From Verrucomicrobiales bacterium (lineage in GTDB: Bacteria; Verrucomicrobiota; Verrucomicrobiia; Limisphaerales; Palsa-1400): DNA of 64,000 nt. Shown piece by piece: positions 1-16,953 of this stretch (its first letter is position 1; every line of letters begins with the position of its first letter). The DNA is taken from assembly GCA_003138485.1 (NCBI GenBank), contig PLGF01000173.1, forward strand, positions 31,281 to 95,280, written 5' to 3'. A program made the position numbers and the translations under genes. A model generated the notes under the pieces. It made no database searches. It saw only the letters and a program-made list of their open reading frames with translations, and was not told the origin of the DNA.

Positions 1-96
1 CAATCCTGAAAGGATTGCAATCGTTCAGCCCAGGGTTGCGAGGAACGAGCTACCCTGGGTGACAAGACAGAATAATCACAACCCTGAAAGGGTTGA
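1..96. repeat. REP-like cluster of three short hairpins (caatcc-tgaaa-ggattg; cccagggt...accctggg; caaccc-tgaaa-gggttg) at the 3' flank of the RAYT gene
   Basis: Perfect short palindromes read directly from the sequence. The same palindromes occur in inverted arrangement at 585-682 on the other side of the transposase gene. Confidence 0.6.
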
Positions 97-97
97 A

Positions 98-553: not shown

Positions 554-584
554 GGGGTGATGGTACGCGCGCCCGCCCTCCGAT

Positions 585-682
585 TCAATCCTTTCAGGGT
601 TGATAGCCTTTTGGCGCGTTTTCCCCAGGGTAGCTCGTTCCTCGCAACCCTGGGCCGAGCGATCGCAATCCTTTCAGGATTG
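585..682. repeat. REP-like hairpin cluster (inverted copy of 1-96) at the 5' flank of the RAYT gene
   Basis: Contains caatcctttcagggttg, ccccagggtagctcgttcctcgcaaccctggg and caatcctttcaggattg, which are the reverse-orientation counterparts of the 1-96 hairpins. Confidence 0.6.
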
Positions 683-1030
683 CCCAAGGCGTCCATTTTT
701 GGGCGCAAGTCGTTGAAAATGGGGGAGAAACGCACGAATGGAATAAAAAAAACGCATTTTTTTGACTGTATTATAAAAATAATGCAACTTCCTTAACCAC
801 AATGTGTTAGGATTGTTTTTACCCCCGTTTTAGCGTTTTTTGACAAAAAATCTCTGCTGGGGGCTTGACTTTCCGGGGCGCATAGACGATAACTTCGCAA
901 GTTGTACCTGCGTGTTGCAGGTGAGAGCAAGTGTTAAAGTCGCGCCGTCTGCGCCGTTTTCAGAGTGAAGATGACAAAGGCAGGTGCGGGAGAGAACCGA
1001 AACGAAACTGAAATCCTGTCAAACAAGTAT

Positions 1031-1934: not shown

Positions 1935-1994
1935 AATGCGCGGCCGCCCCGATCCTCATCGAAACGGGGGCGTCCGTCACCGAACAGGTGAGGC

Positions 1995-2070
1995 CGGCAG
2001 GGCGACGCTCCCGCGGAATCGGCTCGGCAGGAGCCTCGCCCTGGAAGTTGAAGAATTCTGTCCTGCGCCC
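1995..2070. repeat. composite MITE-like repeat (ggcagggcgacgctcccgcgga / cggctcggcaggagcctcgccctgg / gaagaattctgtc modules)
   Basis: The same modules recur at 7500-7575, 9055-9090 and 9170-9316. Confidence 0.45.
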
Positions 2071-2326
2071 GAACCGAAATCAAAGTCGCGGCTGGTTTTC
2101 CTCTTTCACGCTCCCCCTTTGATCTGTTATTGGTTGAAACGTCATGCGAAGCGGCGAAAAGAGAAGGGCGCGGGAGGCGAAGGCGACTTGGCCACGGCCA
2201 GAACGCCACCCGGTGGCGCGGTTCTGGCACCCGGATGTGCCGGGTCCGCTTTGGAACGGTACCCGGCGGGTGCGCACCGCACTGATACGAGCGTATTGCC
2301 ATGCGGTCGCCCGCTAATTTCAGCCG

Positions 2327-2569
2327 TTGAAGATTATTCTCTTTGAATCCTACGGCACCGCCACCCCCGACTTGGACGTGGATTTAATCGTTGTACTGCC
2401 ATTTTGCGGCTCGACCACGGACAAGGCGGTCGAGATTCGGGGCCGTGTGGAGGCGCCGTTTCCGATGGACCTGTTAGTCTGGCGTCCGTCTGAGGAACGG
2501 AAGCCCGGCGGTTTCACTCGCGCCATCCTGAGCGAGGGCAAAGTGATGCATGAAGCCGGCCGCGCGTGA
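2327..2569 (+). pseudogene. nucleotidyltransferase (MNT) antitoxin-like fragment, N-terminally truncated
   Basis: The ORF opens directly in the NTase motif (LFESYGTATPDLDVDLIVV, compare GSxxRGxxxxxSDIDLxV). There is an in-frame stop immediately upstream, so about 25 aa of the usual N-terminus are missing. Confidence 0.45.
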
Positions 2570-2738
2570 ATGGGTCCGTTGCGCGGAGGAGGATTTTGAC
2601 GTTGCCACCGCGCTTCTGCGCCGGCGATCCAAAACCGCCTCCAACAGCGTTGGCTTCCATTGCCAGCAGTGCGTCGAGAAATATTTCAAAGCGTTTGTTC
2701 TTAGTCAGAGAGGCTGGCCTAAAACCCGGCCTCTTTGA
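2550..2738 (+). pseudogene. HEPN-domain toxin-like fragment, C-terminally truncated (partner of the MNT fragment)
   Basis: 62-aa ORF with a HEPN-like N-terminal helix pair (AREWVRCAEEDFDVATALL...CQQCVEKYFKAF), but it stops before the usual Rx4HR region. It overlaps the MNT ORF in the way MNT/HEPN pairs do. Confidence 0.4.
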
Positions 2739-2841
2739 TTTTTTGCCCCAGTCACCGGCGGCGTTTCAGTCGCCCATGCGGTTTCGGTCGCCCTTTTTTG
2801 AATTTGCAGTCGCCTTTGGAAGGGTTACACTAACGTGCTCT

Positions 2842-2915
2842 TGTCCGATGGTGTAACGGTAGCACAAGGCCCTTTGGAGGCCTTTGTCCTGGTTCGAATC
2901 CAGGTCGGACAGCCA
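2842..2915 (+). tRNA. tRNA-Gln (anticodon TTG)
   Basis: Manual fold: 7-bp acceptor stem TGTCCGA/TCGGACA, D-arm GTGT-AACGGTA-GCAC, anticodon stem AGGCC/GGCCT with loop CTTTGGA (anticodon TTG), T-arm CCTGG-TTCGAAT-CCAGG, discriminator G, encoded CCA. Confidence 0.85.
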
Positions 2916-2917
2916 TT

Positions 2918-3169
2918 ATGCCCGAAATGAAAACGTTGTTGACATGTCTCGCCGCCGCGCTGTTGCTGACGGGGTGCGCCCGTCATTACGACATGACCCT
3001 CACCAGCGGCATGCGGGTGAGCTACGTGACCAAGCCGGTCCTGGACCGCGCGTCCGGCGTCTATACCTACAAGGACGCCGCCGGACGGCGCCGGCAGATC
3101 GACTCCGCCCATGTGGTCAGGATCGATCCGCATTCGAACCGGAACCTCTCGAAGGCATACGGTCAATAA
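2918..3169 (+). CDS. small lipoprotein, YgdI/YgdR (DUF903) family
   Basis: Lipobox LLLTGC after a signal peptide. The mature part matches the YgdR-type pattern (YxMTLxSGxxVxxxxKPxxDxxSGxYxYKDAxG). Its 3' end overlaps the convergent ribE. Confidence 0.6.
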   Translation: MPEMKTLLTCLAAALLLTGCARHYDMTLTSGMRVSYVTKPVLDRASGVYTYKDAAGRRRQIDSAHVVRIDPHSNRNLSKAYGQ

Positions 3170-3758
3170 CAAAACGCTCGACAAACTTTCCCAGCAGGTC
3201 GGTTTCCAGGTTCACCGCGCCGCCCACCCGCCGCTCGCTCAACGCCGTCACCTCCCGCGTGTGCGGAATGATCCAAATCTCGAAGCTCTTCCGCCGCGCC
3301 GCGGCCACCGTCAGGCTGATGCCGTCCACCGCTATCGAGCCTTTGAAGACTACATAGCGCATGATTTCGGGCGGCGCCGCCACCTCCAGCAGGTAATCCT
3401 TGCCGGCCTTTTCCCAGCGGATGATTTTTCCAAGGCCGTCGATGTGCCCGGTTACAAAGTGCCCTCCCATCCTGTCGCCCACCCGCAAGGCGCGCTCCAG
3501 ATTCACCCCCGCGCCCGGCCGCGCGAATTGCAAATTGGTCCGGCTCCAACTCTCCTTGAGCAGCGCGAATCTCAGCAGCTTGTCCTTCCCGCGGGCGCGC
3601 GTCTTCTCCACCGTGAGACAGCAGCCGTTGACGGCCAGGCTGTCGCCCGCCTTGAGGCCGCGCGCGCAGAGGCGGGCTTGCACCCATAGTTCAATTGCAG
3701 CCGCGCCGGGGCGGATGGCCTCAACGCGGCCGGTTTCTTCGACAATTCCAGTAAACAT
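3117..3758 (-). CDS. ribE: riboflavin synthase alpha chain
   Basis: 213 aa. MFTGIVEETG start and duplicated lumazine-binding halves (GDSLAVNGCCLTV ... GSIAVDGISLTV). Confidence 0.85.
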   Translation of the reverse strand: MFTGIVEETGRVEAIRPGAAAIELWVQARLCARGLKAGDSLAVNGCCLTVEKTRARGKDKLLRFALLKESWSRTNLQFARPGAGVNLERALRVGDRMGGHFVTGHIDGLGKIIRWEKAGKDYLLEVAAPPEIMRYVVFKGSIAVDGISLTVAAARRKSFEIWIIPHTREVTALSERRVGGAVNLETDLLGKFVERFVIDRMPSRGSGSNADRS

Positions 3759-3759
3759 A

Positions 3760-4878
3760 TCAATCTCCGCCGGGCGCCTCCGCCGTCCGGGCTGTCAATA
3801 CCAAGTCCGGGCCAAGCCGGCGCCAGACGGCGTCGCGCAGCCGGAGGGCCTCTTGCAGCCGCGCCGCGCCGGCGCCCGCCACCGCTTTGGCGGCGCCGCG
3901 CCCGCCGAGCACCAGGGGAGCATAGAAGAACGCGACCCGTTGCGCCAGACCTTGCTCCAGGAACGAGGCGTTGGTTTCGCCGCCTCCTTCAACGAGCAGG
4001 GCGGTGACGTCTTCGCGCCCCAGCCGGTCCAGCAGCCAGCGCAAGTTTATGCCGCCTCCCGCTCGCGGCGCAGTCAGCACCCGAACCTTTTTGCGCAAAG
4101 CCTCCACGCGCCCGGCCGGGGCCGCGCGGGTCACGACCACGATGGTCGATGCCGCTTCCGCGTCGGAAACCACCCTGGCCCCCAGCGGCGTGCGGGCTCT
4201 GGCATCCAGGATGATCCGGCGCAACCGCTTGCCGGCCCAGCCGGGACGCCGCACCGTCAGGCTGGGATCATCGCGCAGAATTGTGTTGATGCCGGCCAGG
4301 ATCGCGTCCGCGCCCGTCCTCAATTTCATCCCGAAGGCCCTGGCCTTTTCTCCCGTTATCCATTTGGACTCTCCCGTGATCGTCGCGATTTTCCCATCGA
4401 GCGACATGGCGGCTTTGACCGTGACAAAAGGACGGCGGTTGACGATCCAATGGTTGAACGATTCATTCATCAGGGCCGCCTCGGCCGTCAGCAAGCCCGT
4501 GCTGACGGCTATTCCGGCCCGCTCCAATATCTTGAATCCCCGCCCGGCATGGGCCGGATTGGCGTCGCGCGCGGCGACGACGACGCGTTGGATGCCGGCG
4601 GCGATGATGGCATCGGTGCAGGGCGGCGTGCGGCCGTGCGTGCAGCAGGGTTCGAGAGTCACGAACAGCGTGCCGCCCGCCGCGCCGCCGTTTTTGATCG
4701 CCCCGGCCAGGGCTTCAATTTCGGCGTGAGGCCCGCCGGCGCGGCGATGCCAGCCCTGGCCGATCACAGCGCCATCGCGGACCAGGACCGCCCCGACCAT
4801 CGGGTTGGGCGACGTGCGCCCGAAGCCGCGCCGGGCCAATCGCATGGCCAGTCGCATGAAATCAAGGTCCGACGGCAT
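3760..4878 (-). CDS. ribD: bifunctional riboflavin biosynthesis protein RibD (pyrimidine deaminase / reductase)
   Basis: Deaminase motifs HAEIEAL and PCCTHGRTPPC followed by a reductase domain (VTVKAAMSLDGKIA). The start is set at the internal Met (MPSDLDFMRLAMRLA) so that it does not overlap ftsY. Confidence 0.85.
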   Translation of the reverse strand: MPSDLDFMRLAMRLARRGFGRTSPNPMVGAVLVRDGAVIGQGWHRRAGGPHAEIEALAGAIKNGGAAGGTLFVTLEPCCTHGRTPPCTDAIIAAGIQRVVVAARDANPAHAGRGFKILERAGIAVSTGLLTAEAALMNESFNHWIVNRRPFVTVKAAMSLDGKIATITGESKWITGEKARAFGMKLRTGADAILAGINTILRDDPSLTVRRPGWAGKRLRRIILDARARTPLGARVVSDAEAASTIVVVTRAAPAGRVEALRKKVRVLTAPRAGGGINLRWLLDRLGREDVTALLVEGGGETNASFLEQGLAQRVAFFYAPLVLGGRGAAKAVAGAGAARLQEALRLRDAVWRRLGPDLVLTARTAEAPGGD

Positions 4879-4885
4879 AGGCGCT

Positions 4886-5800
4886 TCACCGCTCGTCGAA
4901 AAGGGCCTGGGCGAATTGTTTGGCGTCGAAGGGCTGCAAGTCGTCGGGCTTTTCGCCCACGCCGATGAATTTGACCGGCAGCCCCAGCTCGCGCTGGATG
5001 GCGATGACCATGCCGCCTTTGCTGGTGCCGTCAAGCTTGGTGATGACCAGGCCGGTGAGGGGGACGGATTTGTTGAATTCCCGCGCCTGGGTCAGCGCGT
5101 TCATGCCCGTGCTGGCATCCAGCACCAGCAGCGTCTCATGCGGCGCGCCCGGCAGCTTCTTATCCATGACGCGATGGACCTTTTGCAATTCCTTCATCAG
5201 GTTGTGCTTGGTGTGGAGCCGGCCCGCCGTGTCAATAAACAAGTAATCCGACTTGCGCGCCAGGGCGGCCGCGATGCTGTCGTGGGCCACCGAGGCCGGG
5301 TCCGCGCCGCGCGCGCCCGCCACGACGGGGACCTTGAGGCGTTCGCCCCAGAGTTTGAGTTGCTCGACGGCGGCGGCTCGAAATGTGTCGCAGGCGGCCA
5401 GGAGGGCGGTCTGGCCCCGGGACTGCACCAAGTGGGCCAGCTTGGCGGCCGTGGTGGTTTTGCCGGTGCCGTTGACGCCGACGAGCGACACGACCGTCAC
5501 GCCATCGGGCAGGCGGCGCAAGTCGCCGGCGGCTCCCGCCAGGCTGCGTTCGACCTCGGCGCGGGCGATGGCAAAAACGTCCAGGCCGGCGCGGCCCTGA
5601 GTTTCGTAGGAATGTTTGACGGCGGCGACAATTTGCGCCGTCATCGCAAGGCCCAAATCGGCGGCAATCAGGGCGGCTTCCAGCTCGTCGAGGCCGCCGG
5701 AGGTCAGCTTGGGAGAGGCGGTGACGATGCGCTTGATTTCGTGGGCCAGTTTGCTTTGAGTTTTGAACAGGCCCTCTTTGAGCTTTTGAAACAGGCCCAT
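4886..5800 (-). CDS. ftsY: signal recognition particle receptor FtsY (NG-domain form)
   Basis: SRP GTPase motifs GVNGTGKTTT, DTAGR and TKLDG. Confidence 0.85.
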   Translation of the reverse strand: MGLFQKLKEGLFKTQSKLAHEIKRIVTASPKLTSGGLDELEAALIAADLGLAMTAQIVAAVKHSYETQGRAGLDVFAIARAEVERSLAGAAGDLRRLPDGVTVVSLVGVNGTGKTTTAAKLAHLVQSRGQTALLAACDTFRAAAVEQLKLWGERLKVPVVAGARGADPASVAHDSIAAALARKSDYLFIDTAGRLHTKHNLMKELQKVHRVMDKKLPGAPHETLLVLDASTGMNALTQAREFNKSVPLTGLVITKLDGTSKGGMVIAIQRELGLPVKFIGVGEKPDDLQPFDAKQFAQALFDER

Positions 5801-5803
5801 GAA

Positions 5804-6712
5804 TCAGGTGGCTTTGGCGGCCGGCTGCGGCTGGCTGGCGCGGTTGCGGCGGGCGTCCTTGAGTTTGTCCACATACCGGGCCGGAAGCCGGACGCCGCCG
5901 ATGAGAGGTTTGCCCTTGCTGTAGCCGTGGCAATCTGAGCCGCCGGTGACAGCCAGATTGAGACGCGCGGCCATTTGCAGATAGTATTCGGGCATCGCCC
6001 CAGTGTGCCGGGTGTGAAAACATTCCAGGCCGTCCAGCCCCTGGCCAGCCAGAGTGGGAATGATTTGGTCGCAGTGGTTCAACGCCGGATGGGCCAGCAC
6101 CGCCAGGCCGTGCGCCTCATGGATCAACGCGATGGCGGCATCGGAGGAGATTTTGTATTTGGGCACCCAGGCGGGCCTGCCTTTCTTCAGGTATTTCTCA
6201 AACGCTTCATCCACGCTGGCGCACAGCCCTTCGAGCACCAGCGCCCGGCCCACGTGCGGACGCCCGGGTGAATGGCAGTTGGCCAGTTCAAAGACCGTCT
6301 CGGCCCTGAGGGGAATTCCCAATTTGTTGAGCCGCGCGGCCATTTCCCGCACGCGATCCTTGCGCACGGCCTGGAATTTCCCCATCTCTCCCAGCAACCG
6401 CGGGTGTTCCACCTCCAGGAAGTAACCCAGCAAATGGACTTCCCTCCCTTCGTATTCCGCCGTCAACTCCGCGCCGGAGATAAACTCGATGCCCAGGCCT
6501 TCGCAAGCCCGGCCCATGCGCGCGCACCCTTCGATGCTGTCATGGTCGGTCAGCGCCATCGCCACCAGCCCCAGCCGTCCGCCACGCTCGGCCAACTCTT
6601 CGGGCGTGAAGGTTCCGTCGGAAAAAAGCGTGTGCAAATGCAGGTCGGCGCCCCCGCCCTCCCCGGGCCGAAGGGCGGTCTTCTCGGACGAAATGACGGG
6701 CGAAGCGCTCAT
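5804..6712 (-). CDS. PHP-domain metal-dependent phosphoesterase (TrpH/YciV-like)
   Basis: DLHLHTLFSDG N-terminal PHP motif, with further His/Asp clusters (TDHDS, GGSDCHG). Confidence 0.7.
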   Translation of the reverse strand: MSASPVISSEKTALRPGEGGGADLHLHTLFSDGTFTPEELAERGGRLGLVAMALTDHDSIEGCARMGRACEGLGIEFISGAELTAEYEGREVHLLGYFLEVEHPRLLGEMGKFQAVRKDRVREMAARLNKLGIPLRAETVFELANCHSPGRPHVGRALVLEGLCASVDEAFEKYLKKGRPAWVPKYKISSDAAIALIHEAHGLAVLAHPALNHCDQIIPTLAGQGLDGLECFHTRHTGAMPEYYLQMAARLNLAVTGGSDCHGYSKGKPLIGGVRLPARYVDKLKDARRNRASQPQPAAKAT

Positions 6713-7209
6713 TTGACCACCCGCGCCGACCGGGATAATTGGTCTTTGATCGTGTCCAGGATGCCGTTGACAAACTTGCCGCTGCCCTCGGTGGAGAACT
6801 TCTTGGCGATATCAACCGCCTCGTTAATGCTCACCACCGGCGGAATATCCTCCCGGTGAAGCATCTCGTAAATTGCCAGGCGCAATACATTGCGGTCCAC
6901 CGCCGCCATCCGGGTCAGGTCCCAGTTCTGGGTGTGTTCGGCGATTTTTTGATCCAATTCCGGGCGCTTCTCAATCACGCCTCGAATCAGGCGGTCGGCG
7001 AAAAGGCGCGTGGCCAGTTCCTGGGGGGTGGCCGGCGGCAATTCGGTCTTTTCCCCCCACTTGGCGGAAGCCCTCTCCTCCGCTATCGCCGGGGCGCGTT
7101 GTGAGGCCCAAAAATGGCCCAGCGCCTCCTCCAGATTGTCCGGAGGATTCAGGTCGTGCTGAAAAAGAAACTGCACAGCTCGTTCTCGCGCTTCACGCCG
7201 TTTTCCCAT
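6709..7209 (-). CDS. nusB: transcription antitermination factor NusB
   Basis: RREARERAVQFLFQ...SINEAVDIAKKF is the canonical NusB signature. The start is taken at the internal Met MGKRREARE. Confidence 0.85.
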   Translation of the reverse strand: MGKRREARERAVQFLFQHDLNPPDNLEEALGHFWASQRAPAIAEERASAKWGEKTELPPATPQELATRLFADRLIRGVIEKRPELDQKIAEHTQNWDLTRMAAVDRNVLRLAIYEMLHREDIPPVVSINEAVDIAKKFSTEGSGKFVNGILDTIKDQLSRSARVVK

Positions 7210-7312
7210 GCAATCAAGTCTGGCCCCAAATAACCGAATGCAAAAGCAAATTATCCAGAAAGACGGGCGCAAATCCGGCTTTGAGCGCCCGATTCGCCAG
7301 GAACTTTGTCCG

Positions 7313-7385
7313 GGAGGGCGGAGCGCCGCGACGCCCTAAAATTCTCCCCTCGAACAGGTCAGGGCGTCGCGGCGCTCCGCCCTCC
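7313..7385. repeat. perfect 25-bp inverted repeat (ggagggcggagcgccgcgacgccct / agggcgtcgcggcgctccgccctcc) with a 23-nt loop
   Basis: Read directly from the sequence. It lies about 100 bp upstream of the nusB start on the minus strand. Confidence 0.7.
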
Positions 7386-7499
7386 CGAGCAAAAGCTGAT
7401 TTGCGCTCCAGAAAGATTCGGCAAATCAGTCGCCTTTGGCGACGGGAGGAGAAAGCGCCCACCTTTTAGAACTTTGATTATCAATGACATACAGAGGGG

Positions 7500-7650
7500 C
7501 GCTTGGAAGTCTTTAGACACGCCCGGCTCGGCGGAAGAGTCGCCTTCCCATAAACGCCCCGGTAGGGCGACGCTCCCGCGGAGGCGCCCCCTTTTCCCAA
7601 AAAACCGCTCCTGCTGAGCCGTATGCCAGGCATAGCTCAAAAACTTCCAA
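7500..7650. repeat. MITE-like dispersed repeat copy (cacgcccggctcggcRgaag...cgcc ... gtatgccWggcatWgctcaaaaa)
   Basis: A second copy in the same orientation is at 9055-9155, and partial modules are at 1995-2070. Confidence 0.5.
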
Positions 7651-7732
7651 GTCCCGGGTTGCATGTTCTTGATTATCAACGCTCTCAAGCTCCCTCGGCC
7701 CGCGGCACAACCCCAGCCCCCGCGCTTTTTAT

Positions 7733-8026
7733 GGTGCACAAGGGTGCATAAGCCTGCATAAACCGCCGGGGATGGCTCCGCGCCCTCAAACTCCGTTGAG
7801 CCGCAAAAACCACCGTAATTTACCGTAATTTACCGTAATTTCCGTAACCAACGAACTCCGCCCCATCCGGGAACCCCTCACCGCCGTCAATTTAAGGTGC
7901 GAATAGGTGCGAATAGGCGCGAATCGCCGGTCAAGACCTCAGCCGAAGACATTCAACCACGGATGGACACGGATTAACACGGATAAGAGAATTCCCATCC
8001 GTGTCCATCTGTGTCCATCCGTGGTT
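7733..8026. repeat. composite dispersed intergenic repeat, copy 1. Modules: ggtgcacaagggtgcataagcctgcataa, then (t)accgtaattt x3, then ccacggatggacacggatt.
   Basis: Copy 2 with the same module order and orientation is at 29688-29987. It also contains the gtgcgaatag x2.5 tandem repeat (7896-7929) and a palindromic pair of cacggat arrays (7955-7987 / 7994-8026). Confidence 0.6.
7811..7850. repeat. tandem repeat (accgtaattt) x3.5
   Basis: Direct tandem copies are visible in the sequence. Confidence 0.7.
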
Positions 8027-8240
8027 AAGTCATTTTTTCCAGCGCCCCGGCGGGCCGGAAACGGGGCCAGCGCTCCGCGCAAAGGCGGATCAACAGCCGC
8101 GACAGCCGGGGCATGGCGTGGTTCAAGCGGGTTCGCCGCCCAAACGCCCCGGTCCGCGGCCTTTCAAAGAACAAACCGCCCTCAGCCACTGCAACCACAA
8201 TACCACATAAATTGCATTGTGCAATATAACTAATCCATTT

Positions 8241-8277
8241 ACCATGGATGAACGCGGATGGACACGGATTCAAAAAC
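8241..8277. repeat. third copy of the ggatgNacRcggatggacacggattcaaa motif
   Basis: Matches 7957-7975 and 29951-29987. Confidence 0.5.
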
Positions 8278-8644
8278 CGATTGCCCCGGGGATTCACTCA
8301 CGCAAAGCCGCTGGAAAGAATTCTGCTGAAAATGAGGACTTCTTTGAGATGGCGCCAAAGAACTTGAACAGGAAAACAAAGCAAACGGAGAAGAAACTCG
8401 AACTGGACAAAGCAGCCGTCAAAGGACATGTGCCGTATATGGAAGGGCGGGTGCTGAAGTTGGGAATGAAGGCCGGGCGGACTGAATGGGAGACAAAATG
8501 GGGAGATGGGGCATTACAGCCGGGTGAGCAAAGCGGTCAGCCGATGGCTCGAAGGCCCGGCCGGAAGCTGGAGAAACTGAAAGAAAAGCTGAAGCACTTG
8601 GATCGGTGAATTTGAATGAAAAATGAAAACGGTCACAATTCCAG

Positions 8645-8760
8645 CCCGAATATTTCACAGCTTGGCAGGGCGAAGCTGCAGCGGAACTGGATAGTCGATG
8701 CCCGCTTTGCGGGCTGCTTCGCCCTGATATTTGGGCGGCGCGGCAGCACCGCCCTACCGA
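8645..8760. repeat. partial inverted copy of the core of the 9170-9316 structured element
   Basis: About 85% identical to the reverse complement of 9195-9292 (ggcagggcRaagMtgcag...ggatagtcgatgcccgctttgcgggctgc...gggcggcgc), but it lacks the terminal inverted repeats. Confidence 0.5.
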
Positions 8761-9054
8761 CAAATTGGAAGCGCCTTTCGCCGCGCTGTGAAATATCCGG
8801 GCTGGGACCCTTTGGCCTTCCCCAAATGGGCCATTACAACAACGCCAGCGGTGGGACCCGGAAAATGAGCCTTGGTGGTCTTCGCCAATTCCGAAAAGCC
8901 GGGTCACAACTACAGCTTTTGGAAAAGAAGGAGATGACAAAATGAACCGGCACCAATTTCCTAGGACTGACCCTATTACGGAGGTTGTGGTTCTGGCGCG
9001 GAGAAGGACGCGGGCTTCATGACCGCTCCGCGCCTTCAATCAATCCGTTTCTGA

Positions 9055-9155
9055 ACACGCCCGGCTCGGCAGAAGCCTCGCCCTGCGGAGGCGTTTATGG
9101 CAGATGGCGAGGCACCCGGCGAGGCGTATGCCTGGCATTGCTCAAAAAATGAGAT
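9055..9155. repeat. MITE-like dispersed repeat copy (same family as 7500-7650)
   Basis: It shares the acgcccggctcggcRgaag and gcgtatgccWggcatWgctcaaaaa modules. Confidence 0.5.
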
Positions 9156-9169
9156 GCGCCCCAGATGGG

Positions 9170-9316
9170 CGTGAGACAGAATTCTTCACGCCGTCGGTAG
9201 GGCGGCGCTGCTGCGCCGCCCAAGAATTCAGGGCAGAGCAGCCCGCAAAGCGGGCATCGACTATCCAGTTCCATCTGCATCTCTGCCCTGCCAGGAAGGT
9301 GAAGAATTCTGTCTCA
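9170..9316. repeat. 147-bp MITE-like or structured element bounded by perfect 19-bp terminal inverted repeats (gtgagacagaattcttcac / gtgaagaattctgtctcac)
   Basis: Internal strong hairpins (gggcggcgc-tgct-gcgccgccc; gcccgc-aaa-gcgggc; gggcagag...ctctgccc). It ends 84 bp upstream of the 9400 giant gene. Confidence 0.6.
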
Positions 9317-9399
9317 CACCCAGACGCCTTAATATACCTTATTTAACTCTTGCATATCACCCTGAATTCCTTATGCTTCGGCCCGGTTAGACTGCCGTT

Positions 9400-12300
9400 A
9401 TGAAAACAATCCTCCCTTCATTCGTCAAACCGGCCCTCCAATTGACCCTCCTCCAACTGGGCCTGCTCTTTTGCCCCGCCCTGCGCGCCGGCGTCGCCTT
9501 CACCGTCACGCCTGCCGCCGTGAGCAACACTTACAGCGGCTTCATCACCCTTCAGGTGACCGGCCTGAGCGCCGGCGATACCGTGGTGGTGCAGAAATAC
9601 CTGGACGTCAATGGCAGCGGCGTCATCGCCTCGAATGACTGGCTGGTGCAACAGTTTCAACTCACCGATGGCCAGCCGGGCATGGTGATCGGCGGCATCG
9701 TCAATTCCAACGTGCCGGGCGACACCGACACGACGCCGGGACAAATCACCACGCCGATGAATTTTCAGAACGGCGATTTCATGCAGAACATTGCCGGGCA
9801 ATATCTCTTCAAGCTGTCCAGCCCGGCCGGGCATTTTACGGCGAAAACGAATCTTTTCAGCATCACCAACGTCCCGTTCGCGCAGAAGCTCACCGGCAAT
9901 GTGCTCATCAGCGGAACCAGTACGCCGGTCCCCAATGCCATTGTCCTCCTTGAAAGAGAAAACGGCCCGGCCCAGGGAGGCGTGCTGGCGGACAATTCCG
10001 GCTCTTACACCATCCCGGCGCCGCCCGGGACTTATACGCTGCTCCCTTTCAAGAGCAACTATGTCTTCAATCAAAGTTCATCGGCTCTGCCGGTCCTTGC
10101 CTTGAGCAGCGGCCAGACCATCACCACGAACCTGACGGTCACCGCCGCCACGGCCAGCATCTCCGGTCAACTGGTCGATTCCAACAATCTCTCCATTGGA
10201 TTGCCGGGCGTTTTTTTGGGGGCCACAGCGTCCAACAGCCTCACGGGGATAGGTTTGACGGACAGCAACGGCAATTTTACCGTCGGCGTCGTCTCCAACC
10301 TCGGCAACTGGTCGTTCAAACTCAAAGGCGAGCGTCTTATTGTCCACGGCTATGTTGGATTGAATGAGAAAGTGAGCGCCGCCGCCGGGCAAACCGATGT
10401 CACCCTCGCCGTGCCCAAGGGCACGGCGATGTTTTATGGCAGTGTGAAAGACAATCTGGGAAGTCCCATGCCCGGCATCGAAGTCGAGTCCTCCGACAAA
10501 AATAACAATTATCAGGGCGACGGCTACACCGACGCAAATGGGAATTACGCCGCCGTCGCGCTGGGCGGCCTGGGCAACGACTCGTGGCAGGTGGGACTCA
10601 GCAGTGACACGAGCCCCGCCGGTTACCTTTTTTCGCAGCCGCTCGTTGACTCGAACGGCGGCACGAACATGAGCACCGGACAGGCGCTGCCGGCGAATTT
10701 CACCGCCCTTCTGGCGACCAATTCCATCTCCGGCTCCCTCAAGGACAATAACGGCAACCCCATCCCCGGCATCGGCGTTTACGGCAACGACCTCAGCGAC
10801 ACCAATTATCAGGCCTACGTCGATACCGACACCAATGGCAATTATTCGTTGAGCGTGGGCAATGGCACTTGGAAGGTCGGCATCAACTCCTGCAACGGTT
10901 GCGGGGGCGACAGTTTGCCCGGCAACTATCTGCCCCCCCCAAATCAAACGTTTACGATTTCCAACGACAACGCGACGGCCGATTTCATCGCGCAACTCTG
11001 CGGCACGATCATCATCACCACCACTTCACTGCCCGCCGGCGAAATTAATGAGTATTACGATCAGTTTGGCCAGGCTTCCAGTTGCAGTTCCACCTTCACC
11101 TGGTCGATCATCTCCGGTTCACTGCCGCCGGGTTTGAGCGGGAACCCTTTCACCGGCGAAATCTCCGGCACACCCACCAATTCCGGAGTTTACCCTTTCA
11201 TCATCCAGGTCGTTGACGGCAACGGCCTGGCAGCCATTCAAGCACTGACCCTGACCGTCAACGGCGGCCCGTTGAGTGTGACGACGGCTTCACTCACCAG
11301 CGGCACAACCAACGTGCCCTATAACAGCCAGCAGTTGACCGCCAGCGGCGGCCAGCCGCCTTACCGTTGGTCCCTGGCATCGGGGGGGCTGCCGTCCGGC
11401 TTGGGCTTGTCCACCAACGGCGTGATTAGCGGGACGCCGACAAGGGCTGGGACTACCAACTTCGTCGTGAAAGTCACCGACAGCGCCTCGGCAACAGCGA
11501 CGCAGCCCCTGTCGCTGGCCGTCTATGCGCTTTCCACTTCCGTGACGTTTTCTGTTTCGACTGGCGCCGTCAGCAACTCTTATTCCGGGCTTATTACGCT
11601 GCAAGTGGCGGGGTTGAACATCGGTGAGACCGTGCAGGTGGAGAAGTTTCTCGACGTCAATGGGGACGGCGCGGTGGATGCCGGGGATTCGCTGATGCGG
11701 AGTTTCCCCCTGACCGACGGCCAGGCCAGTGTGATCGGCGGGGTCACCAACGTCAACGTCCCCGGTGATACCACTCCGGCCGATGGCTCCATCACCGCTC
11801 AGCTCAGCATCGCCAACGACGTGGCTCAGGAGATCGTCGGCCAGTACATCTTCAGGCTCACCAGCCCAACCGGCCGCTTTGCGCCGATGACGGCCCTGTT
11901 TGATGTGACCAATGCCGCCTACGCGCAATCGTTTTCCGGGTCGGTTCAATGCGGCGGCGTCAACGTCCCTTACGCGACCGTGTTGGTCGTCCCTGCCAAT
12001 AGCACGAGCCGCACCCCCGTGGCCGGCGTGCTGGCGAACAGCGCCGGCAACTACTCCATCAAACTGCCGCCCGGCCCTTACAGTTTCTACGTCTTCAAGA
12101 GCAACTATGTCGCCAACCTGGCCCAGTCGCCGACGCTCACGTTGAGCAATGGGGCGGACGTCACCACGAATCTCACTTTCCTGGTTCCCGCCACCCAAAC
12201 CATCTCCGGTCGATTTGTCGATGCAGCCTACCCCGGCGTCGGATTGCCGGCCATATACGTCATCTGCCAATCCACCAATAGCCTCATGGCCGGAGCCTGT

Positions 12301-14121
12301 TTGACCGACACCAACGGGAACTTCACCATGCCGGTCACCCCAAGTCAGTGGGGAGTCTCCCTGGACGAATCAGGTCTGACAGCCAGCGGCTACCTTGTTC
12401 CACAGAGCAGCACGACCGTTCAAACGGCCTCCGGGAGCGTCTCCAATGTTATTGTCACAGTGGCCAAGGGCACGGCGCTGTTCTATGGAAGCGTCAAGGA
12501 TAGCTTCGGAAATCCATTGCCGTCAATTGAGGTTGAATCCCGGGACAACAACAACTTGTATGGAGGCGATGCCTATACGGACACGAACGGAAACTACGTC
12601 GTCGTCGCCCTGGGCGGATTGAGCTTCGACCCGTGGCAGGTTGAAATCAGCAGCGACCACAGTCCCGCCGACTACCTTTATCAGGGGCCGGGCTTTGATT
12701 CAAACGGCGGCGCCAACCTCGGCTCCGGCCAGGCATTGCCGGGGGATTTCTCGGCCCTTCTGGCGACCAACACCATCTCCGGCTATCTAAAGGACAACAC
12801 CGGCAAACCCATCGCCGGCGTCGGAGTTTACGCCTACGCAACGATCTCCGAAGTGTACTACCAACTGGAAGCCGTGGATACCGGCGCCAATGGGTATTAT
12901 TCGCTGGACGTAGCCAGCGGCTCGTGGTCGGTCGGCCTCATTGGGAGCGGCTACAACGATAGTCTGCCCACAAACTATCTCAGCCCTCAATATCAGACAG
13001 TTGTAATTTCCAGCGACAATGGCACGGCGAATTTCACCGCCCCTGTTGCGACCCAGTTGATCACTGGCTTCGTGCAGGACAGCCACGGAAACCCCGTCAC
13101 CGGAGTCGGGGTGTACGCCAACGACGTTAGCGACACCAATTATGGCGCTTATGCGGACACCGACGGCAACGGCAACTACTCGCTGAACGTGATTGCCGGC
13201 AGTTGGTCCGTTGGCGTCAACTGCTCCGGCGGCAACGACAGCCTGGACAACATTCTTGGCAGGGGCAATTATGAGTGTCCAACCAACGAGAATGTCACTA
13301 TTACCAATGAAACCGGCACCGCGAATTTCACCGTTGAGCCTCCCGTGCCGCTGCAAATAACGACTACCAATCTGCCCGCTGGCAGCGTCGGCATCTTCTA
13401 CGAGTTTCAACTCCAAGCCACTGGCGGGCACCCTCCGTACCAGTGGGGTTGGACCACACCGGATGGCAACCCTCCGCCCGGCTTGAATTTGACCTTTTCC
13501 AATGGGGTTCTATCCGGCTATCCCAGCGCCAGTGGGACCTTTGTATTCTCGGTGCAGGCCTACGATAATTATACCTCTCAGGATTCGACGAATCAATGGA
13601 TATCGGTTTACATCGCGCCATCCGCTCCCCCGTTGCAGGTCACGACCACGTCTTTGCCCAATGCGACCAATGGCGTTTATTACAGCCAGCAACTACAGTG
13701 CTCTGGCGGTGTCGCGCCCTATTATTGGACCAACAGTCCCGGCTCGGCCAGTCTGCCGCCCAATTTGACTCTGGCCACCAATGGCATCATCTCCGGCACG
13801 CCGACGGGCAGCGGAACGTATTACTTCTACGTCCGCGCCATAGATTCGACGGCGGCGACGGCGGATCACCTTCTGTCGCTCACAATCACCAACAAGCCGG
13901 TCATCACCCTCACGGGAGCGACCCGGCTGACCAATGGGGAGTTTCAGTTCAAATTCAACACCTCTGCGGGCGCCACTTATGCGATTCAATCCTCCAGCAA
14001 CTTGTTGAATTGGAGCCTGCTCCTGGACCTCAGCGGCTCCGGCGTGCCGCTGACGGTGATGGACCCCGGCGCCACGACCAACCGCCGCCAGTTTTATCGC
14101 GTGGAGGTCCTGCCACCCTAG
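9400..14121 (+). CDS. giant secreted cell-surface repeat protein (He_PIG / putative Ig domains, CarboxypepD_reg-like beta-sandwich repeats) with the conserved RFYRV-type C-terminal domain
   Basis: The 1573-aa ORF has an N-terminal signal peptide. It is an internal duplication of a ~700-aa super-module (the FTVTPAAVSNTYSGFITLQVTGL block recurs near aa 710). Repeated TTTSLPxGxxGxxYxxQLxAxGGxxPYxWS Ig-like units are present. The C-terminal 75 aa match the CTD shared with three other proteins in the window. Confidence 0.8.
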   Translation: MKTILPSFVKPALQLTLLQLGLLFCPALRAGVAFTVTPAAVSNTYSGFITLQVTGLSAGDTVVVQKYLDVNGSGVIASNDWLVQQFQLTDGQPGMVIGGIVNSNVPGDTDTTPGQITTPMNFQNGDFMQNIAGQYLFKLSSPAGHFTAKTNLFSITNVPFAQKLTGNVLISGTSTPVPNAIVLLERENGPAQGGVLADNSGSYTIPAPPGTYTLLPFKSNYVFNQSSSALPVLALSSGQTITTNLTVTAATASISGQLVDSNNLSIGLPGVFLGATASNSLTGIGLTDSNGNFTVGVVSNLGNWSFKLKGERLIVHGYVGLNEKVSAAAGQTDVTLAVPKGTAMFYGSVKDNLGSPMPGIEVESSDKNNNYQGDGYTDANGNYAAVALGGLGNDSWQVGLSSDTSPAGYLFSQPLVDSNGGTNMSTGQALPANFTALLATNSISGSLKDNNGNPIPGIGVYGNDLSDTNYQAYVDTDTNGNYSLSVGNGTWKVGINSCNGCGGDSLPGNYLPPPNQTFTISNDNATADFIAQLCGTIIITTTSLPAGEINEYYDQFGQASSCSSTFTWSIISGSLPPGLSGNPFTGEISGTPTNSGVYPFIIQVVDGNGLAAIQALTLTVNGGPLSVTTASLTSGTTNVPYNSQQLTASGGQPPYRWSLASGGLPSGLGLSTNGVISGTPTRAGTTNFVVKVTDSASATATQPLSLAVYALSTSVTFSVSTGAVSNSYSGLITLQVAGLNIGETVQVEKFLDVNGDGAVDAGDSLMRSFPLTDGQASVIGGVTNVNVPGDTTPADGSITAQLSIANDVAQEIVGQYIFRLTSPTGRFAPMTALFDVTNAAYAQSFSGSVQCGGVNVPYATVLVVPANSTSRTPVAGVLANSAGNYSIKLPPGPYSFYVFKSNYVANLAQSPTLTLSNGADVTTNLTFLVPATQTISGRFVDAAYPGVGLPAIYVICQSTNSLMAGACLTDTNGNFTMPVTPSQWGVSLDESGLTASGYLVPQSSTTVQTASGSVSNVIVTVAKGTALFYGSVKDSFGNPLPSIEVESRDNNNLYGGDAYTDTNGNYVVVALGGLSFDPWQVEISSDHSPADYLYQGPGFDSNGGANLGSGQALPGDFSALLATNTISGYLKDNTGKPIAGVGVYAYATISEVYYQLEAVDTGANGYYSLDVASGSWSVGLIGSGYNDSLPTNYLSPQYQTVVISSDNGTANFTAPVATQLITGFVQDSHGNPVTGVGVYANDVSDTNYGAYADTDGNGNYSLNVIAGSWSVGVNCSGGNDSLDNILGRGNYECPTNENVTITNETGTANFTVEPPVPLQITTTNLPAGSVGIFYEFQLQATGGHPPYQWGWTTPDGNPPPGLNLTFSNGVLSGYPSASGTFVFSVQAYDNYTSQDSTNQWISVYIAPSAPPLQVTTTSLPNATNGVYYSQQLQCSGGVAPYYWTNSPGSASLPPNLTLATNGIISGTPTGSGTYYFYVRAIDSTAATADHLLSLTITNKPVITLTGATRLTNGEFQFKFNTSAGATYAIQSSSNLLNWSLLLDLSGSGVPLTVMDPGATTNRRQFYRVEVLPP

Positions 14122-14161
14122 AACCTCCAAATGGGTTGGAACAAGAAAGGCTCGTCAACCG

Positions 14162-15316
14162 ATGAAAATGCGCATCTGGCGGTTGTTCGGCAAGCCGGCC
14201 TCGGCCTCCCTTCGTGCAGGTTCTGCACGATGTTACCTGGCAGCCGGGTTGCTTATGCTGACAGGGTTGACGGCTTGGAATGCGCAGTCCCAGCCGATTG
14301 ATGTTACCACCAGCCAATACACCGGAGATTTATGGTTGGAGTTTGTCAGCCCCCGCAGTGAGATTTGGTCAAATCAGGTTCCGTCCTCTCCGCCCTTCGC
14401 CAGCACGATTGAGGAGACATCAACTTGGGCCAGGTCCGACTACCCTGGCGTGAATTGCACCACTTATGGGCTTGTAAGCCAAGATTGCCAGATCTCTTCC
14501 GACAGCATTACGATCTCATGCTCTTATTACGATTCAGCGGGAGGGCCGGAGGAACCCTGGATAGGGTGGATGGCAGCCCAGGTGTGGCCGTCGTCTGGCG
14601 CCACGTTAACTTTCTCCTTGACTGAACCTTGCGCTTACACGGCGTCGGTTCAGATGTCTGCCGCCTGCCCTGGCGGCACCACAGCCGATACGGGCGCGCT
14701 GTTCCAATACTCTGCAAGCTCAACGTTTGGAAGCTACATGGAAGCTACTTCACATTTTCCTTCGTTATCGGCCACGATGACAACCAACGGATACCTTGCC
14801 ACCGGCGGTTATATAATTTCTTGTGACTGTAACGGCGATAACGCGATTCTTCTTGGACTTGGTGAAATGACGGCGAGGGCAAGCGCCATTGTATCGGTTT
14901 CTTTCGTTCCCCTCCCGGCCCTTGCCATCACCACTCCCAGCCCACTGCCGAACGGGACAGTGAGCGTGCCCTACAATCAAACTCTTGCCGCAACAGGAGG
15001 GGCGCCGCCGTACGCGTGGTCCATCGTTTCAGGCAGTTTGCCCGACGGGTTGAGCTTGGACGCGAACAGCGGCGCCATCACCCGCACGCCCACGAGTGCG
15101 ACGACAGCCACCTTCACAGTGCAGGTGACGGACAGGATCGGGACGACCGCAACCCAGCAGTTCACCCTGTCCGTCGTCGCACCGCTTGTCATTACCACGG
15201 CTAATCCGTTGCCGGACGGAACAGTGGGTGTGTCCTATGGCGTGACGCTGGAGGCGACCGGGGCTCAGGCAATTACACATGGGACATCGTCTCGGGCAGT
15301 TTGCCAGATGGGTTAG
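14162..15316 (+). CDS. secreted He_PIG (putative Ig) repeat surface protein, 5' portion of a gene interrupted by a frameshift
   Basis: Signal peptide, then Ig-like repeats (PLPNGTVSVPYNQTLAATGGAPPYAWSIVSGSLPDGLSLD). The reading frame runs into the downstream ORF after a 1-nt change in the G4 run at 15260-15263. Confidence 0.65.
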   Translation: MKMRIWRLFGKPASASLRAGSARCYLAAGLLMLTGLTAWNAQSQPIDVTTSQYTGDLWLEFVSPRSEIWSNQVPSSPPFASTIEETSTWARSDYPGVNCTTYGLVSQDCQISSDSITISCSYYDSAGGPEEPWIGWMAAQVWPSSGATLTFSLTEPCAYTASVQMSAACPGGTTADTGALFQYSASSTFGSYMEATSHFPSLSATMTTNGYLATGGYIISCDCNGDNAILLGLGEMTARASAIVSVSFVPLPALAITTPSPLPNGTVSVPYNQTLAATGGAPPYAWSIVSGSLPDGLSLDANSGAITRTPTSATTATFTVQVTDRIGTTATQQFTLSVVAPLVITTANPLPDGTVGVSYGVTLEATGAQAITHGTSSRAVCQMG

Positions 15317-16953
15317 GGTTCGACACCCGCAGCGGCGCCATCGGTGGCATGCCGACCGCCGCCACAACCAATAGCATTGAGGTGGAGGTGAGAGACGACA
15401 ACGGAGTTACAACGAACAAAACCTTCACCCTAACGATCACGAATTCATTCGTCACCATTGTCACCCCCAGTCCGTTGCCGGACGGAACCGTGGGCGTGGG
15501 TTACAGCCATCCATTGGAAGCCACGGGCGGCACAGGCAATTACGCGTGGACGATTGCAGGATTGCCGGACGGTTTGCTCCCGGATTCCAGCGGAGACATT
15601 ACCGGCATTCCAACCACGGCTGGGATTTTCAACTTTGTCGCCCAAGTAACCGACATGGTGACGGGCGCCTCCGCCAGCAATTTGTTCAGCCTGACCATCA
15701 GTAACGTGCTCGGCACCTGCACTTGGACGATCACAACCTCGGTCAAACCGTCCGGCTCCGGCAACGGAGGCAGCCCCCTTGTCCTGGCCGTGAACTGCGG
15801 AGAGAGCGTGACGGTGACGGCGCGGCCAAGAACCTGTTACTATTTCGTCAACTGGACGGAAGGCGGGAGCGTCGTCAGCGCCTCGTCAAGTTACTCCTTC
15901 ACCGCGACGGCGAATCGGAACCTGGTGGCCAATTTCACGGAAAACCTCTACACAATCAGCACGAGCCATTCACCCGCCTCTGGCGGCGCCACCGGCGGCG
16001 GCGGAACAAATGCAGGGTGCGGGAGCAGAGTGATGGTGACCGCCACGGCCAACAGCGGCTTTGCGTTTGCCAACTGGACTGAGGGTGGGCTGGTGGTAAG
16101 CGCCGCGTCAAACTACACGTTCACTGTCTCGGCCAATCGGACCTTGGTGGCCAATTTCAACGATATTCAGCCGCCCTCCCTCGTCATAACCTCACCGCTG
16201 CCAGTCCAGATGTGGGGTTCGCTGGGCACGGCGAACTTGGCCGCCGCCGGGACGGCGACTGACAACGTTGCCGTGGCGTCGGTGTGGTATCAGTTCAACG
16301 GCGGGGCTTGGACGGAGGCCAACGGCACAACCAATTGGACCACGGGCAACCTGAACCCGGCTTCCGGCACCAATCTCCTCTTGGCGTGCGCGGTGGACAC
16401 CAGCGGCAACGGGTCGGCGACCAACAGCGTGGCTTTCGTCTATGTGTGGGTCGCGCCGTTACAGGCGCCACCCACCGTTTTGCCCAGCGCGACGCAGAAC
16501 GTTTCTTACAGCACCCCACTCCAAGGAATCGGAGGGCAACCGCCATACACCTGGTCGCTGGCGCTTGGGTCGGCCGCCTTGCCGCCCGGTTTGTCTTTTG
16601 CGACCAATGGCATCCTATCGGGCTTTCCAAGCACGGCCGGCACAAGCTCCTTCATCGTGAGCGTGACCGATGCGGCGGATACGACCACAAACCAAGTGAT
16701 GACACTCACGGTCAATGCTTCGACCAACCCGCCCGTCGTGGTGTTGACCGCTGCATCGTGTTCCAGCAGTGGGCAGGTCCAATTCAGCTTCAATACAACG
16801 GTGGGCTTGAACTACACCGTTCAACGCTCGACGGACCTGGAAACCTGGACTTCCCTCCTGACGTTGAGCGGTTCCGGCGGGCCTCAGACCGTCATGGATT
16901 CCAACGCCGCCGGAGCAAGCCATCGCTTTTATCGCGTGCAAATCGGGCAGTAG
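15301..16953 (+). CDS. 3' portion of the same surface protein (He_PIG repeats, two InlB-B/Listeria-Bacteroides-type repeats, conserved C-terminal RFYRV domain)
   Basis: The repeat unit continues seamlessly from the upstream ORF if one G is added (expected ...EATGGSGNYTWDIVSGSLPDGLGFD). CYYFVNWTEGGSVVSASSSYSFTATANRNLVANF occurs twice. The C-terminus is ...QFSFNTTVGLNYTVQRSTDLETWTSLLTLSGSG...HRFYRVQIGQ. Confidence 0.65.
   Translation: MPDGLGFDTRSGAIGGMPTAATTNSIEVEVRDDNGVTTNKTFTLTITNSFVTIVTPSPLPDGTVGVGYSHPLEATGGTGNYAWTIAGLPDGLLPDSSGDITGIPTTAGIFNFVAQVTDMVTGASASNLFSLTISNVLGTCTWTITTSVKPSGSGNGGSPLVLAVNCGESVTVTARPRTCYYFVNWTEGGSVVSASSSYSFTATANRNLVANFTENLYTISTSHSPASGGATGGGGTNAGCGSRVMVTATANSGFAFANWTEGGLVVSAASNYTFTVSANRTLVANFNDIQPPSLVITSPLPVQMWGSLGTANLAAAGTATDNVAVASVWYQFNGGAWTEANGTTNWTTGNLNPASGTNLLLACAVDTSGNGSATNSVAFVYVWVAPLQAPPTVLPSATQNVSYSTPLQGIGGQPPYTWSLALGSAALPPGLSFATNGILSGFPSTAGTSSFIVSVTDAADTTTNQVMTLTVNASTNPPVVVLTAASCSSSGQVQFSFNTTVGLNYTVQRSTDLETWTSLLTLSGSGGPQTVMDSNAAGASHRFYRVQIGQ

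Follow-up and report, generated by a model that had tools for sequence, protein, structure and literature searches.

Introduction

Among described bacterial repeats, those closest to the DNA studied here are miniature inverted-repeat transposable elements (MITEs), GTAG-tagged palindromes of the repetitive extragenic palindrome (REP) type (Di Nocera et al. 2013, PMC3733652), REPs and the REP doublets forming hairpins (REPINs) (Bertels and Rainey 2011, PMC3116915), and heptameric intergenic repeats (PMC4692102). The DNA in question is the 2.19-kb spacer (2190 nt) at positions 7210-9399 of a 64,000-nt stretch of contig PLGF01000173.1 from a Verrucomicrobiales bacterium, the whole of which is referred to below as the window. 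The spacer lies between two divergent genes, nusB and the gene of a giant surface protein. Heptamer arrays termed short tandemly repeated repetitive (STRR) sequences were reportedly described by Mazel and colleagues in 1990 in heterocystous cyanobacteria, and response regulators of the OmpR/PhoB type have tandem decamer operator sites, such as the 'tor boxes' of TorR.

Judged from its sequence, the spacer is filed as a mosaic of MITE/REP-like elements of the bacterial interspersed mosaic element (BIME) type. The explanation that we favour, and regard as probable, is a pile-up of mobile, non-autonomous DNA that is specific to this lineage and holds no gene and no recognised RNA family. Its elements A1, C and C', described below, resemble MITEs such as enterobacterial RU-1/ERIC, Correia and RUP in being small (157-184 nt) and non-coding, in possessing terminal inverted repeats, and in being dispersed and nested. 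An earlier sequence-only reading of the window had listed the repeats of this region; all were present, displaced by no more than a few bases from the positions it gave and far above chance. By summing matched intervals, ~60% of the 2190 nt was found to have at least one further copy elsewhere.

Nested repeats in the nusB spacer

The organisation of the spacer was revealed by comparison with a metagenome contig of a related species (JGI 3300036906; L207), which was reached as the contig of P0004, a 'homologue' of one of the spurious open reading frames (ORFs) discussed below. L207 positions 9644-10252 match window 7418-7484, 7669-7768, 7945-8076 and 8390-8644 in the same order at 78-88% identity. 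The L207 copy is flanked by an SSF transporter on one side and by an OEP/RND efflux operon on the other, a context non-syntenic with the window. Thus, these ordered matches at a non-syntenic locus establish the existence of a composite backbone of ~610 nt, termed X, of which the window version spans 1227 nt (7418-8644).

Apart from its palindrome, the blocks of X read on the + strand. The left block (7418-7484) is 84% identical to L207 9644-9711 and contains a small hairpin, GTCGCCTTTGGCGAC. The middle block (7669-7768; 85% identity to L207 9701-9800) holds a GGTGCAYAAG x3 array at 7733-7762. A palindrome of CACGGAT decamer arrays follows (arms 7955-7984 and 7997-8026, 30 nt each and 90% complementary, with a 12-nt loop); this segment, 7955-8026, shows 78-83% identity to L207 9827-9909. 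Beyond it, a post-hairpin block (CCAGCGCCCCGGCGGGCCGGAAACGGGGCC..., 8031-8076) is 92% identical to L207 9919-9957. The right part of X is module D (8390-8644), a purine-rich segment of 255 nt that is the source of the spurious ORF of 86 or 121 residues and whose folding is unremarkable (z = -1.0 and -0.45). Two window segments are heavily reduced at their L207 counterparts: 7769-7944, carrying the ACCGTAATTT and AGGTGCGAAT arrays, corresponds to just 26 nt, and 8077-8389 (313 nt, with a CACGGAT array at 8238-8274) to just 46 nt.

X is interrupted by a MITE-like insertion, A1, of 184 nt (7485-7668, + strand). An 11-bp sequence, TTGATTATCAA, flanks A1 exactly, with its left copy at 7474-7484 and its right copy at 7669-7679, and occurs as a single copy in L207 (TTGATTGTCAA). 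A1 is thus bounded by a target-site duplication for which L207 supplies the empty site. The terminal inverted repeats of A1 are 26 nt long and imperfect (17/26 matching) with a perfect 9-nt core, CTTGGAAGT, and the terminus reads GACATACAGAGGGGCGCTTGGAAGT. Its interior carries a GGTAGGGCG hairpin and a GGCTCGGC...GCC module.

A further element, C' (8641-8805, - strand, 165 nt), is found at the right end of X, where it interrupts the junction CACAATTCCAG|GACCCTTTGGC. L207 and a further metagenome locus, L208, have the junction uninterrupted and represent empty sites. The nesting that had been read from the window alone is therefore borne out by empty-site comparisons, in A1 with its 11-bp duplication inside X and in C' at the right end of X. 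C' possesses 21-nt terminal inverted repeats, CCAGCCCGRATATTTCACAGC (95%), around a core with a GTAG-tagged palindrome.

The related element C (9166-9322, + strand, 157 nt) is bounded by 24-nt arms, GGGCGTGAGACAGAATTCTTCAC (the 'T arm'; 96%), and ends 78 nt short of the surface-protein ATG at 9400. The two cores share 80 nt at 91% identity in opposite orientation, in keeping with the partial inverted copy of C that had been proposed; the outer inverted repeats of 21-24 nt differ. C and C' would accordingly be classed, from their sequences, as two subfamilies with unrelated termini around one core. The arm sequence GAAGAATYCTGTCYYRCRCCC (T arm) occurs five times in the window against none expected. 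C is predicted to fold with -94 kcal/mol (z = -9.6 vs shuffles), and C' has a z of -8.3. In an alignment of five C copies all stems are kept, two compensatory pairs divide the C type from the C' type, and the GTAG hairpin shows U-G/C-G alternation. This conservation would fit selection for the hairpin, as RNA or as single-stranded DNA, five sequences being too few to discriminate between them.

Other repeats of the spacer

Between A1 and the palindrome, and beyond it, the window contains decamer arrays on the + strand. The ACCGTAATTT array (x3.7, 7812-7847) is missing from the L207 copy of X, and one ACCGTAATTT unit also stands beside a CACGGAT array at 29933-29945. The AGGTGCGAAT x3 array occupies 7895-7924 and has a homologous array in the metagenome locus L209. 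A third CACGGAT array of 2.4 units (8238-8274) is 89-91% identical to window 29949-29985 and corresponds to the third motif copy that had been placed at 8241-8277. Tandem Repeats Finder reported six period-10 arrays in 7733-8269 and two to three more in 29687-29980, and these are the sole non-coding period-10 arrays of at least 2.7 units that it reported in the window. CACGGATnnnCACGGAT matches the window seven times against 0.03 expected. The tandem subrepeats and the CACGGAT palindrome of the earlier reading were both recovered. Elsewhere in the window, in-frame tandem repeats at 33930-34288 (120-nt x3) and 34753-36195 (69-nt x13) belong to the giant Ig-like gene and the adjacent surface-protein gene on the - strand and are ordinary coding domain repeats.

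Toward nusB, a long hairpin has 33-nt arms (7305-7337 and 7361-7393; arm CCGGGAGGGCGGAGCGCCGCGACGCCCT) that are 94% complementary around a 23-nt loop. Its perfect core of 27 nt (7311-7337/7361-7387) extends the perfect 25-bp inverted repeat previously noted at 7313-7385. The hairpin resembles widespread inverted-pair hairpins of the form GGGAGGGCG..., and no further copy of it was found in the sequence data searched.

Family-A elements had also been listed, and the family proved looser than described. Its three sites (7517-7643, 9050-9165 and 1946-2070) do have blocks in common, of 21-28 nt at 89-96% identity, but are not full-length copies; family A is a set of hairpin modules in common. The second site, A2 (9050-9165, + strand; ACACGCCCGGCTCGGCAGAAGCCTCGCCCTG ... 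CGTATGCCTGGCATTGCTCAAAAA), abuts element C.

Called ORFs

Annotation pipelines call two ORFs in the corresponding spacer of JGI and ENA contigs, at 8244/8349-8609 (121 or 86 residues) and 8616-8945 (109 residues). Neither matches a Pfam or NCBIfam family, even at E <= 10. A word-indexed search of 5.8 billion proteins returned only five and two relatives, respectively. An exhaustive search of 1.84 billion representatives gave five matches, of which three were copies of the same repeat and two resembled repetitive proteins by chance. Aligned as DNA, the copies of D are set apart by indels of 1 and 6 nt and by one replaced segment, which leaves no conserved frame. The N-terminus of the 121-residue version is a translated CACGGAT array, and the 109-residue ORF is a read-through from the end of D into C'. 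Both ORFs thus fail as genes on families, frame and homologues, the spacer is non-coding as had been claimed, and the calls are repeat-derived artefacts. For annotators, the spacer is a recent accretion of mobile DNA and not a missed gene.

In one short contig (L240 117-383, protein P0128), the 5' half of D is joined to another continuation, which encodes ...KELRRGWYMGGEGFMETL... The possibility that D is the remnant of a longer transposase-like gene (P0128 continuing '...KELRRGWYMGGEGF...') was considered and rejected, there being no family, plasmid or viral match in its support, nor any among the sequences gathered here. This continuation may resemble part of the long RAYT-like transposases (RAYT, REP-associated tyrosine transposase) of Planctomycetes-Verrucomicrobia-Chlamydiae bacteria, a link that no result supported.

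Dispersal of the repeats

A metagenome scan with a 26-mer of D identified three distinct loci, and another contig was reached via the other spurious ORF. Including the window, D is represented by five copies: L212 (96% identity), L209 (94%, truncated), L208 (89%, partial) and L207 (88%). The D/X copies are located at L207 9644-10262, L208 ~8880-9212, L209 4087-4384 and L212 1112-1357, and in L212 D has C' attached in the same arrangement as in the window. The C core is present in five copies in ~130 kb of related sequence, including L207 12091-12249 (92%) and two in L212. The latter locus also contains the T arm and, at 97% identity, the A3 module of family A (window 1946-2043). Several dispersed families had been proposed, and their modules do recur both elsewhere in the window and at the non-syntenic loci L207, L208, L209 and L212. 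The modules are thus not confined to the window, and no real gene covers the region.

The genes flanking D vary from locus to locus: an SSF transporter and OEP in L207, a 1979-residue fn3/GH30C protein and an unknown gene in L208, an HhH-GPD glycosylase and an unknown gene in L209, and a response regulator and thiE in L212. As for the check that had been proposed, the copies show no preference for sites upstream of surface-protein genes. The D/X copies show a bias of orientation and position (detailed below) that is unexpected for junk insertions and is the opposite of a REP-like bias.

A second copy of an 'element B' had been placed at 29688-29987. A 34-nt block of the GGTGCAYAAG stretch is indeed present there (29684-29717, 94% identical), as is the ACCGTAATTT/CACGGAT end, but the interior differs and there is no full copy; element B is better described as part of backbone X (7418-8644). 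The partial X copy (29684-29985) belongs to a second repeat-rich spacer, 29443-30425, which is bounded by a GAF histidine-kinase gene and by the 3' end of the gene for a 1372-residue Ig-like protein. This spacer also holds T arms at 29873-29893 and 30172-30192 and a hairpin at 30267-30296/30338-30367 with 30-nt arms that are 97% complementary.

In L209, the array at 4153-4182 that is homologous to window 7895-7924 reads (G/A)(C/G)CGCAAAT x3. The concerted G-to-A change of its units, weighed below, could be concerted evolution driven by conversion or slippage, or the array may co-vary with a factor that binds it.

A 25-mer of the C core gave no match in the genome collection, in which the source species is not represented. 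A 17-mer of the same core had five matches in viral contigs, all in coding sequence and with no similarity past the seed, and these were dismissed as chance. Matches of the GTGCAYAAG and CCGTAAT arrays in viral contigs were likewise rejected as unrelated tandem repeats.

Locus and flanking genes

The spacer's neighbours are as previously described. nusB (6709-7209, - strand) matches PF01029, and the giant surface protein of 1573 residues, which starts at 9400 on the + strand, carries He_PIG and CarboxypepD_reg domains. The bacterium is an uncultured member of the Verrucomicrobiota of the Pedosphaera type; its NusB is 77-85% identical to proteins labelled Verrucomicrobiota, Verrucomicrobiae or Pedosphaera sp. 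In relatives whose NusB is 78-80% identical, the nusB-PHP-ftsY(-ribD-ribE) operon is conserved, the spacer upstream of nusB measures 41-269 nt, and the gene beyond it differs per relative (a HEAT-repeat protein, thrS or a prepilin-type protein). No spacer module was found in the 16-kb nusB loci of these relatives. Short spacers of the ancestral type, with other neighbours and without modules, indicate that the 2.19-kb spacer is a recent, lineage-specific expansion, and it sits where gene order varies in every lineage examined.

Window 1946-16942 aligns to two metagenome contigs (JGI 3300037092 Ga0334832 and ENA ERZ28653482 WOOD18-1) at 99.8% identity and without a single indel, so that the spacer is stable across these strains. 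A breakpoint between strains is seen at window 1946 (against L001 15263), where the 99.8% identity starts exactly at the left edge of A3. To its left the two strains have different genes, so that the breakpoint abuts this family-A module (A3, 1946-2070). The suggestion that the region is a recombination hotspot is upheld only indirectly, by the lineage-dependent neighbour of nusB and the breakpoint at 1946, whereas the spacer itself is collinear in the two strains. Such repeats coincide with differences of gene order between relatives.

Scans of the spacer for sigma-70 promoters and terminators gave counts no better than those of shuffled sequences. At the Rfam gathering threshold the sole passing match in the whole window was a tRNA (2842-2912), and at E <= 1 only sub-threshold microRNA-hairpin look-alikes were returned for 7100-9500.

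CACGGAT arrays in other bacteria and in viruses

The pattern (CACGGATnnn)x3 was found in at least 120 stretches of a species-representative genome collection, compared with ~0.3 expected in 596 Gb (computed for 21 specified bases), and in 67 stretches of IMG/VR viral contigs. The record titles among the matches listed name at least 10 phyla, among them Verrucomicrobiota, Acidobacteriota, Planctomycetota, several Proteobacteria classes and Nitrospirota, along with Gemmatimonadota, Bacteroidota, Chloroflexota, Spirochaetota, Omnitrophota and others; mis-binning of metagenome-assembled genomes may contribute to this breadth. The arrays are usually preceded by a T-rich prefix ending ...AAC or ...AGC. 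The genomic arrays among the matches listed mostly form inverted pairs, the loop measuring 3-160 nt, and complementarity between the 3-nt spacers of the two arms is not constant.

With crude gene calls, 72 sites among the matches listed fell into 5 divergent, 46 tandem and 21 convergent spacers, a distribution that is REP-like. For 12-19% of arrays, the start is no more than 8 nt from the stop codon of an ORF that is on the same strand and at least 100 codons long, compared with ~5% in an offset control. In phage contig L007, CACGGAT arrays occupy the gaps that separate the genes for portal, scaffold and major capsid proteins. Loci with CACGGAT arrays (L003-L206, among the matches listed) also contain 178 period-7 and 106 period-9 intergenic arrays of very diverse units, which bring the STRR heptamers of cyanobacteria to mind.

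Candidate identities for the arrays were considered and rejected. As transposon ends around a gene they failed in phage contig L007, where no transposase gene is flanked by them. An association with RAYT genes was similarly discarded, since the two RAYT-like genes encountered (L167 and L174; ~120 genome loci listed) are flanked by other hairpins. A G-U bias test for the RNA strand of the hairpins gave no asymmetry (96 vs 81), its design being ascertainment-biased by a perfect left arm. The unit was compared by eye with a DnaA box, a CtrA box, a sigma-54 site and a CsrA site, and in each case spacing or key positions fail.

The family-A 22-mer GGCTCGGCRGRAGCCTCGCCCT (window 2020-2041 and 9062-9083) occurs in 22 IMG/VR stretches (L213-L234). 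Several of these are inverted pairs in which GGGAGGGCGAGGCTCCYGCYGAGCC is followed by a loop and then by its own reverse complement; the 22-mer is a second hairpin motif of wide occurrence. When the searchable literature was queried by sequence strings, no paper with the array or hairpin sequences was returned, the only hits being unrelated polymerase chain reaction primers; nor was a description of triple CACGGAT arrays found in it.

It is conceivable, though in our view unlikely, that the triple-decamer arrays, above all (CACGGATnnn)x3, constitute an undescribed REP-like or protein-binding class, and that X is a mobile cassette bringing them into divergent promoter regions in fixed orientation, there to act on transcription. 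If so, part of the supposed repeat graveyard would be a working regulatory module. CACGGAT triple arrays and GGGAGGGCGAGGCTCC... inverted hairpins are common to very distant bacteria and phage contigs, and metagenome catalogues contain many spurious 'hypothetical proteins' that derive from them. Taking a proper census, and working out which factors bind or mobilise these blocks, would clean up the catalogues and might reveal a widespread system of DNA or RNA recognition.

Origin of the spacer

In the course of events that we propose, X would have landed between nusB and the surface-protein gene in a compact form of ~0.6 kb comprising decamer arrays, the CACGGAT hairpin and D. A1 would then have inserted into X with its 11-bp target duplication, X would have gained extra decamer arrays, and C' would have inserted at the right end of X. 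Next along the spacer come A2 and a second C core with different caps. We infer that mobilisation was mediated by a transposase acting in trans, as for MITEs and REP/REPIN-type hairpins, and that any effect on the two flanking promoters, through hairpins and possible protein-binding arrays, would be incidental and not the reason for the region.

Several observations weigh against this account. No transposase gene with matching termini was present in the fetched loci, which leaves mobilisation as a deduction, and a target duplication is not clear for C or C', nor could an empty site be shown for C. Family-A copies have only short blocks in common, and the dispersal of the modules rests on ~130 kb of related contigs. 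The GGTGCAYAAG stretch is identical over ~35 nt between the window and L207 while its flanks are ~85% identical, and the three units of the L209 array all bear the same G-to-A change (GCGAAT x3 vs GCAAAT x3). Furthermore, at each of the five D/X loci the copy is directed away from its left-hand neighbour, a gene on the opposite strand, and at four of these loci the spacer is fully divergent, albeit in a small sample. Together, the array identity, the concerted unit change and the fixed orientation suggest constraint over decay.

Such constraint would be expected if the spacer were a regulatory hub, whereby the decamer arrays are putative sites for transcription factors (e.g. winged-helix response regulators) controlling the two promoters that diverge toward nusB and the surface-protein gene, with X as a mobile regulatory cassette. 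Arrays with a period of 10 (3-4 units, spaced by one helical turn) in four sequence types within 540 nt would suit this role, as would the conservation of the GGTGCAYAAG block above its flanks, the concerted change of all three units of one array, the position of D/X next to a divergent gene 5' end at every one of the five loci, and the location of the partial copy 29684-29985 upstream of the GAF histidine-kinase gene. We nevertheless consider a hub quite improbable. The arrays travel on a dispersed element into unrelated contexts (SSF transporter/OEP, DNA glycosylase, thiE), the CACGGAT hairpin is decaying in L207 with no compensatory changes, and the arrays of other genomes avoid divergent spacers (5/72 among the matches listed); no cognate binding protein was identified, and there are just five loci.

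We rate it as very unlikely that C, C' or D gives rise to a small structured RNA or to an extended 5' leader regulating the surface-protein operon. The folding of C and C' far beyond shuffles, the retention of stems with two compensatory pairs and U-G/C-G alternation, and the proximity of C to the ATG at 9400 could all be read in favour of a functional RNA. However, the folding energy derives mostly from terminal inverted repeats and is equally expected of mobile hairpin DNA, there is no Rfam match, and the two C copies are oppositely oriented and 430 nt apart. D, moreover, folds in no unusual manner, copies occur in unrelated contexts, and five sequences are too few for covariation. That the two ORFs encode real small proteins seems barely credible: despite their being called on both JGI and ENA contigs, the existence of short homologous ORFs and a GAGGA ~10 nt upstream of ATG 8349, their only true relatives among the 1.84 billion representatives are near-identical repeat copies, and the frame is broken by indels and the replaced segment. 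A pile-up of non-autonomous mobile DNA therefore remains our preferred explanation.

Comparison with known systems

The resemblance to MITEs is closest for A1, which has a target-site duplication together with a related copy whose site is empty; from its sequence we would class it as a MITE with weak terminal repeats. One difference from known MITEs is that no parental insertion sequence sharing the elements' termini was found. C and C' depart further in having no evident duplication and two unrelated terminal-repeat sets around a conserved core, and family A in being a mosaic of short common blocks.

With REP, REPIN and BIME elements the spacer shares GC-rich extragenic hairpins, inverted pairs and the clustering of several motif types in one spacer. 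In the core of C, a GTAG stands directly 5' of a palindrome with a 9-bp stem, GTAGGGCGGCGCTGCTGCGCCGCC, at 9197; the arrangement is also present in the C' copy and, more loosely, in A1. The C-core GTAGGGCGGCGCTGCTGCGCCGCC is a textbook GTAG-tagged palindrome as defined in PMC3733652. The GGTAGGGCG motif occurs three times in the 64 kb, always within the spacer, against 0.36 expected; GTAG palindromes are not enriched across the window (4 vs 2.6 in shuffles). REPs, in contrast, are mostly found downstream of genes and measure 20-40 bp, whereas the spacer here is divergent and its units are much longer. The window does possess a Y1 transposase gene of the IS200-like type (98-553, - strand, 151 residues; PF01797, E = 7e-20), flanked by 59-nt inverted repeats (1-59/624-682, 95% complementary). 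Each arm consists of two small hairpins, CAATCCTGAAAGGATTG and CCCAGGG...CCCTGGG. These flanks differ from all spacer modules, so that no RAYT gene flanked by a repeat of the spacer is present in the window. Window 1-735 as a whole is a REPtron/TIRtron-like unit. Given the lack of GTAG enrichment, the different Y1 flanks and the divergent location, membership of the REP/RAYT system is not claimed.

The decamer arrays are similar to STRR and heptameric repeats in being short intergenic tandem arrays with 7-10-nt units, few copies and many types; they differ in their period of 10, in typically comprising exactly three units that are often inverted pairs, and in a heptamer common to many phyla. 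With operators of the tor-box type they share 3-4 direct repeats, a 10-bp period and a promoter-bearing spacer. Here, however, no regulator was identified, the arrays reside on a dispersed element, and those of other genomes avoid promoter-type spacers. Set beside these systems, the spacer is an ordinary and well-supported case of nested non-autonomous repeats, of which the families themselves are new.

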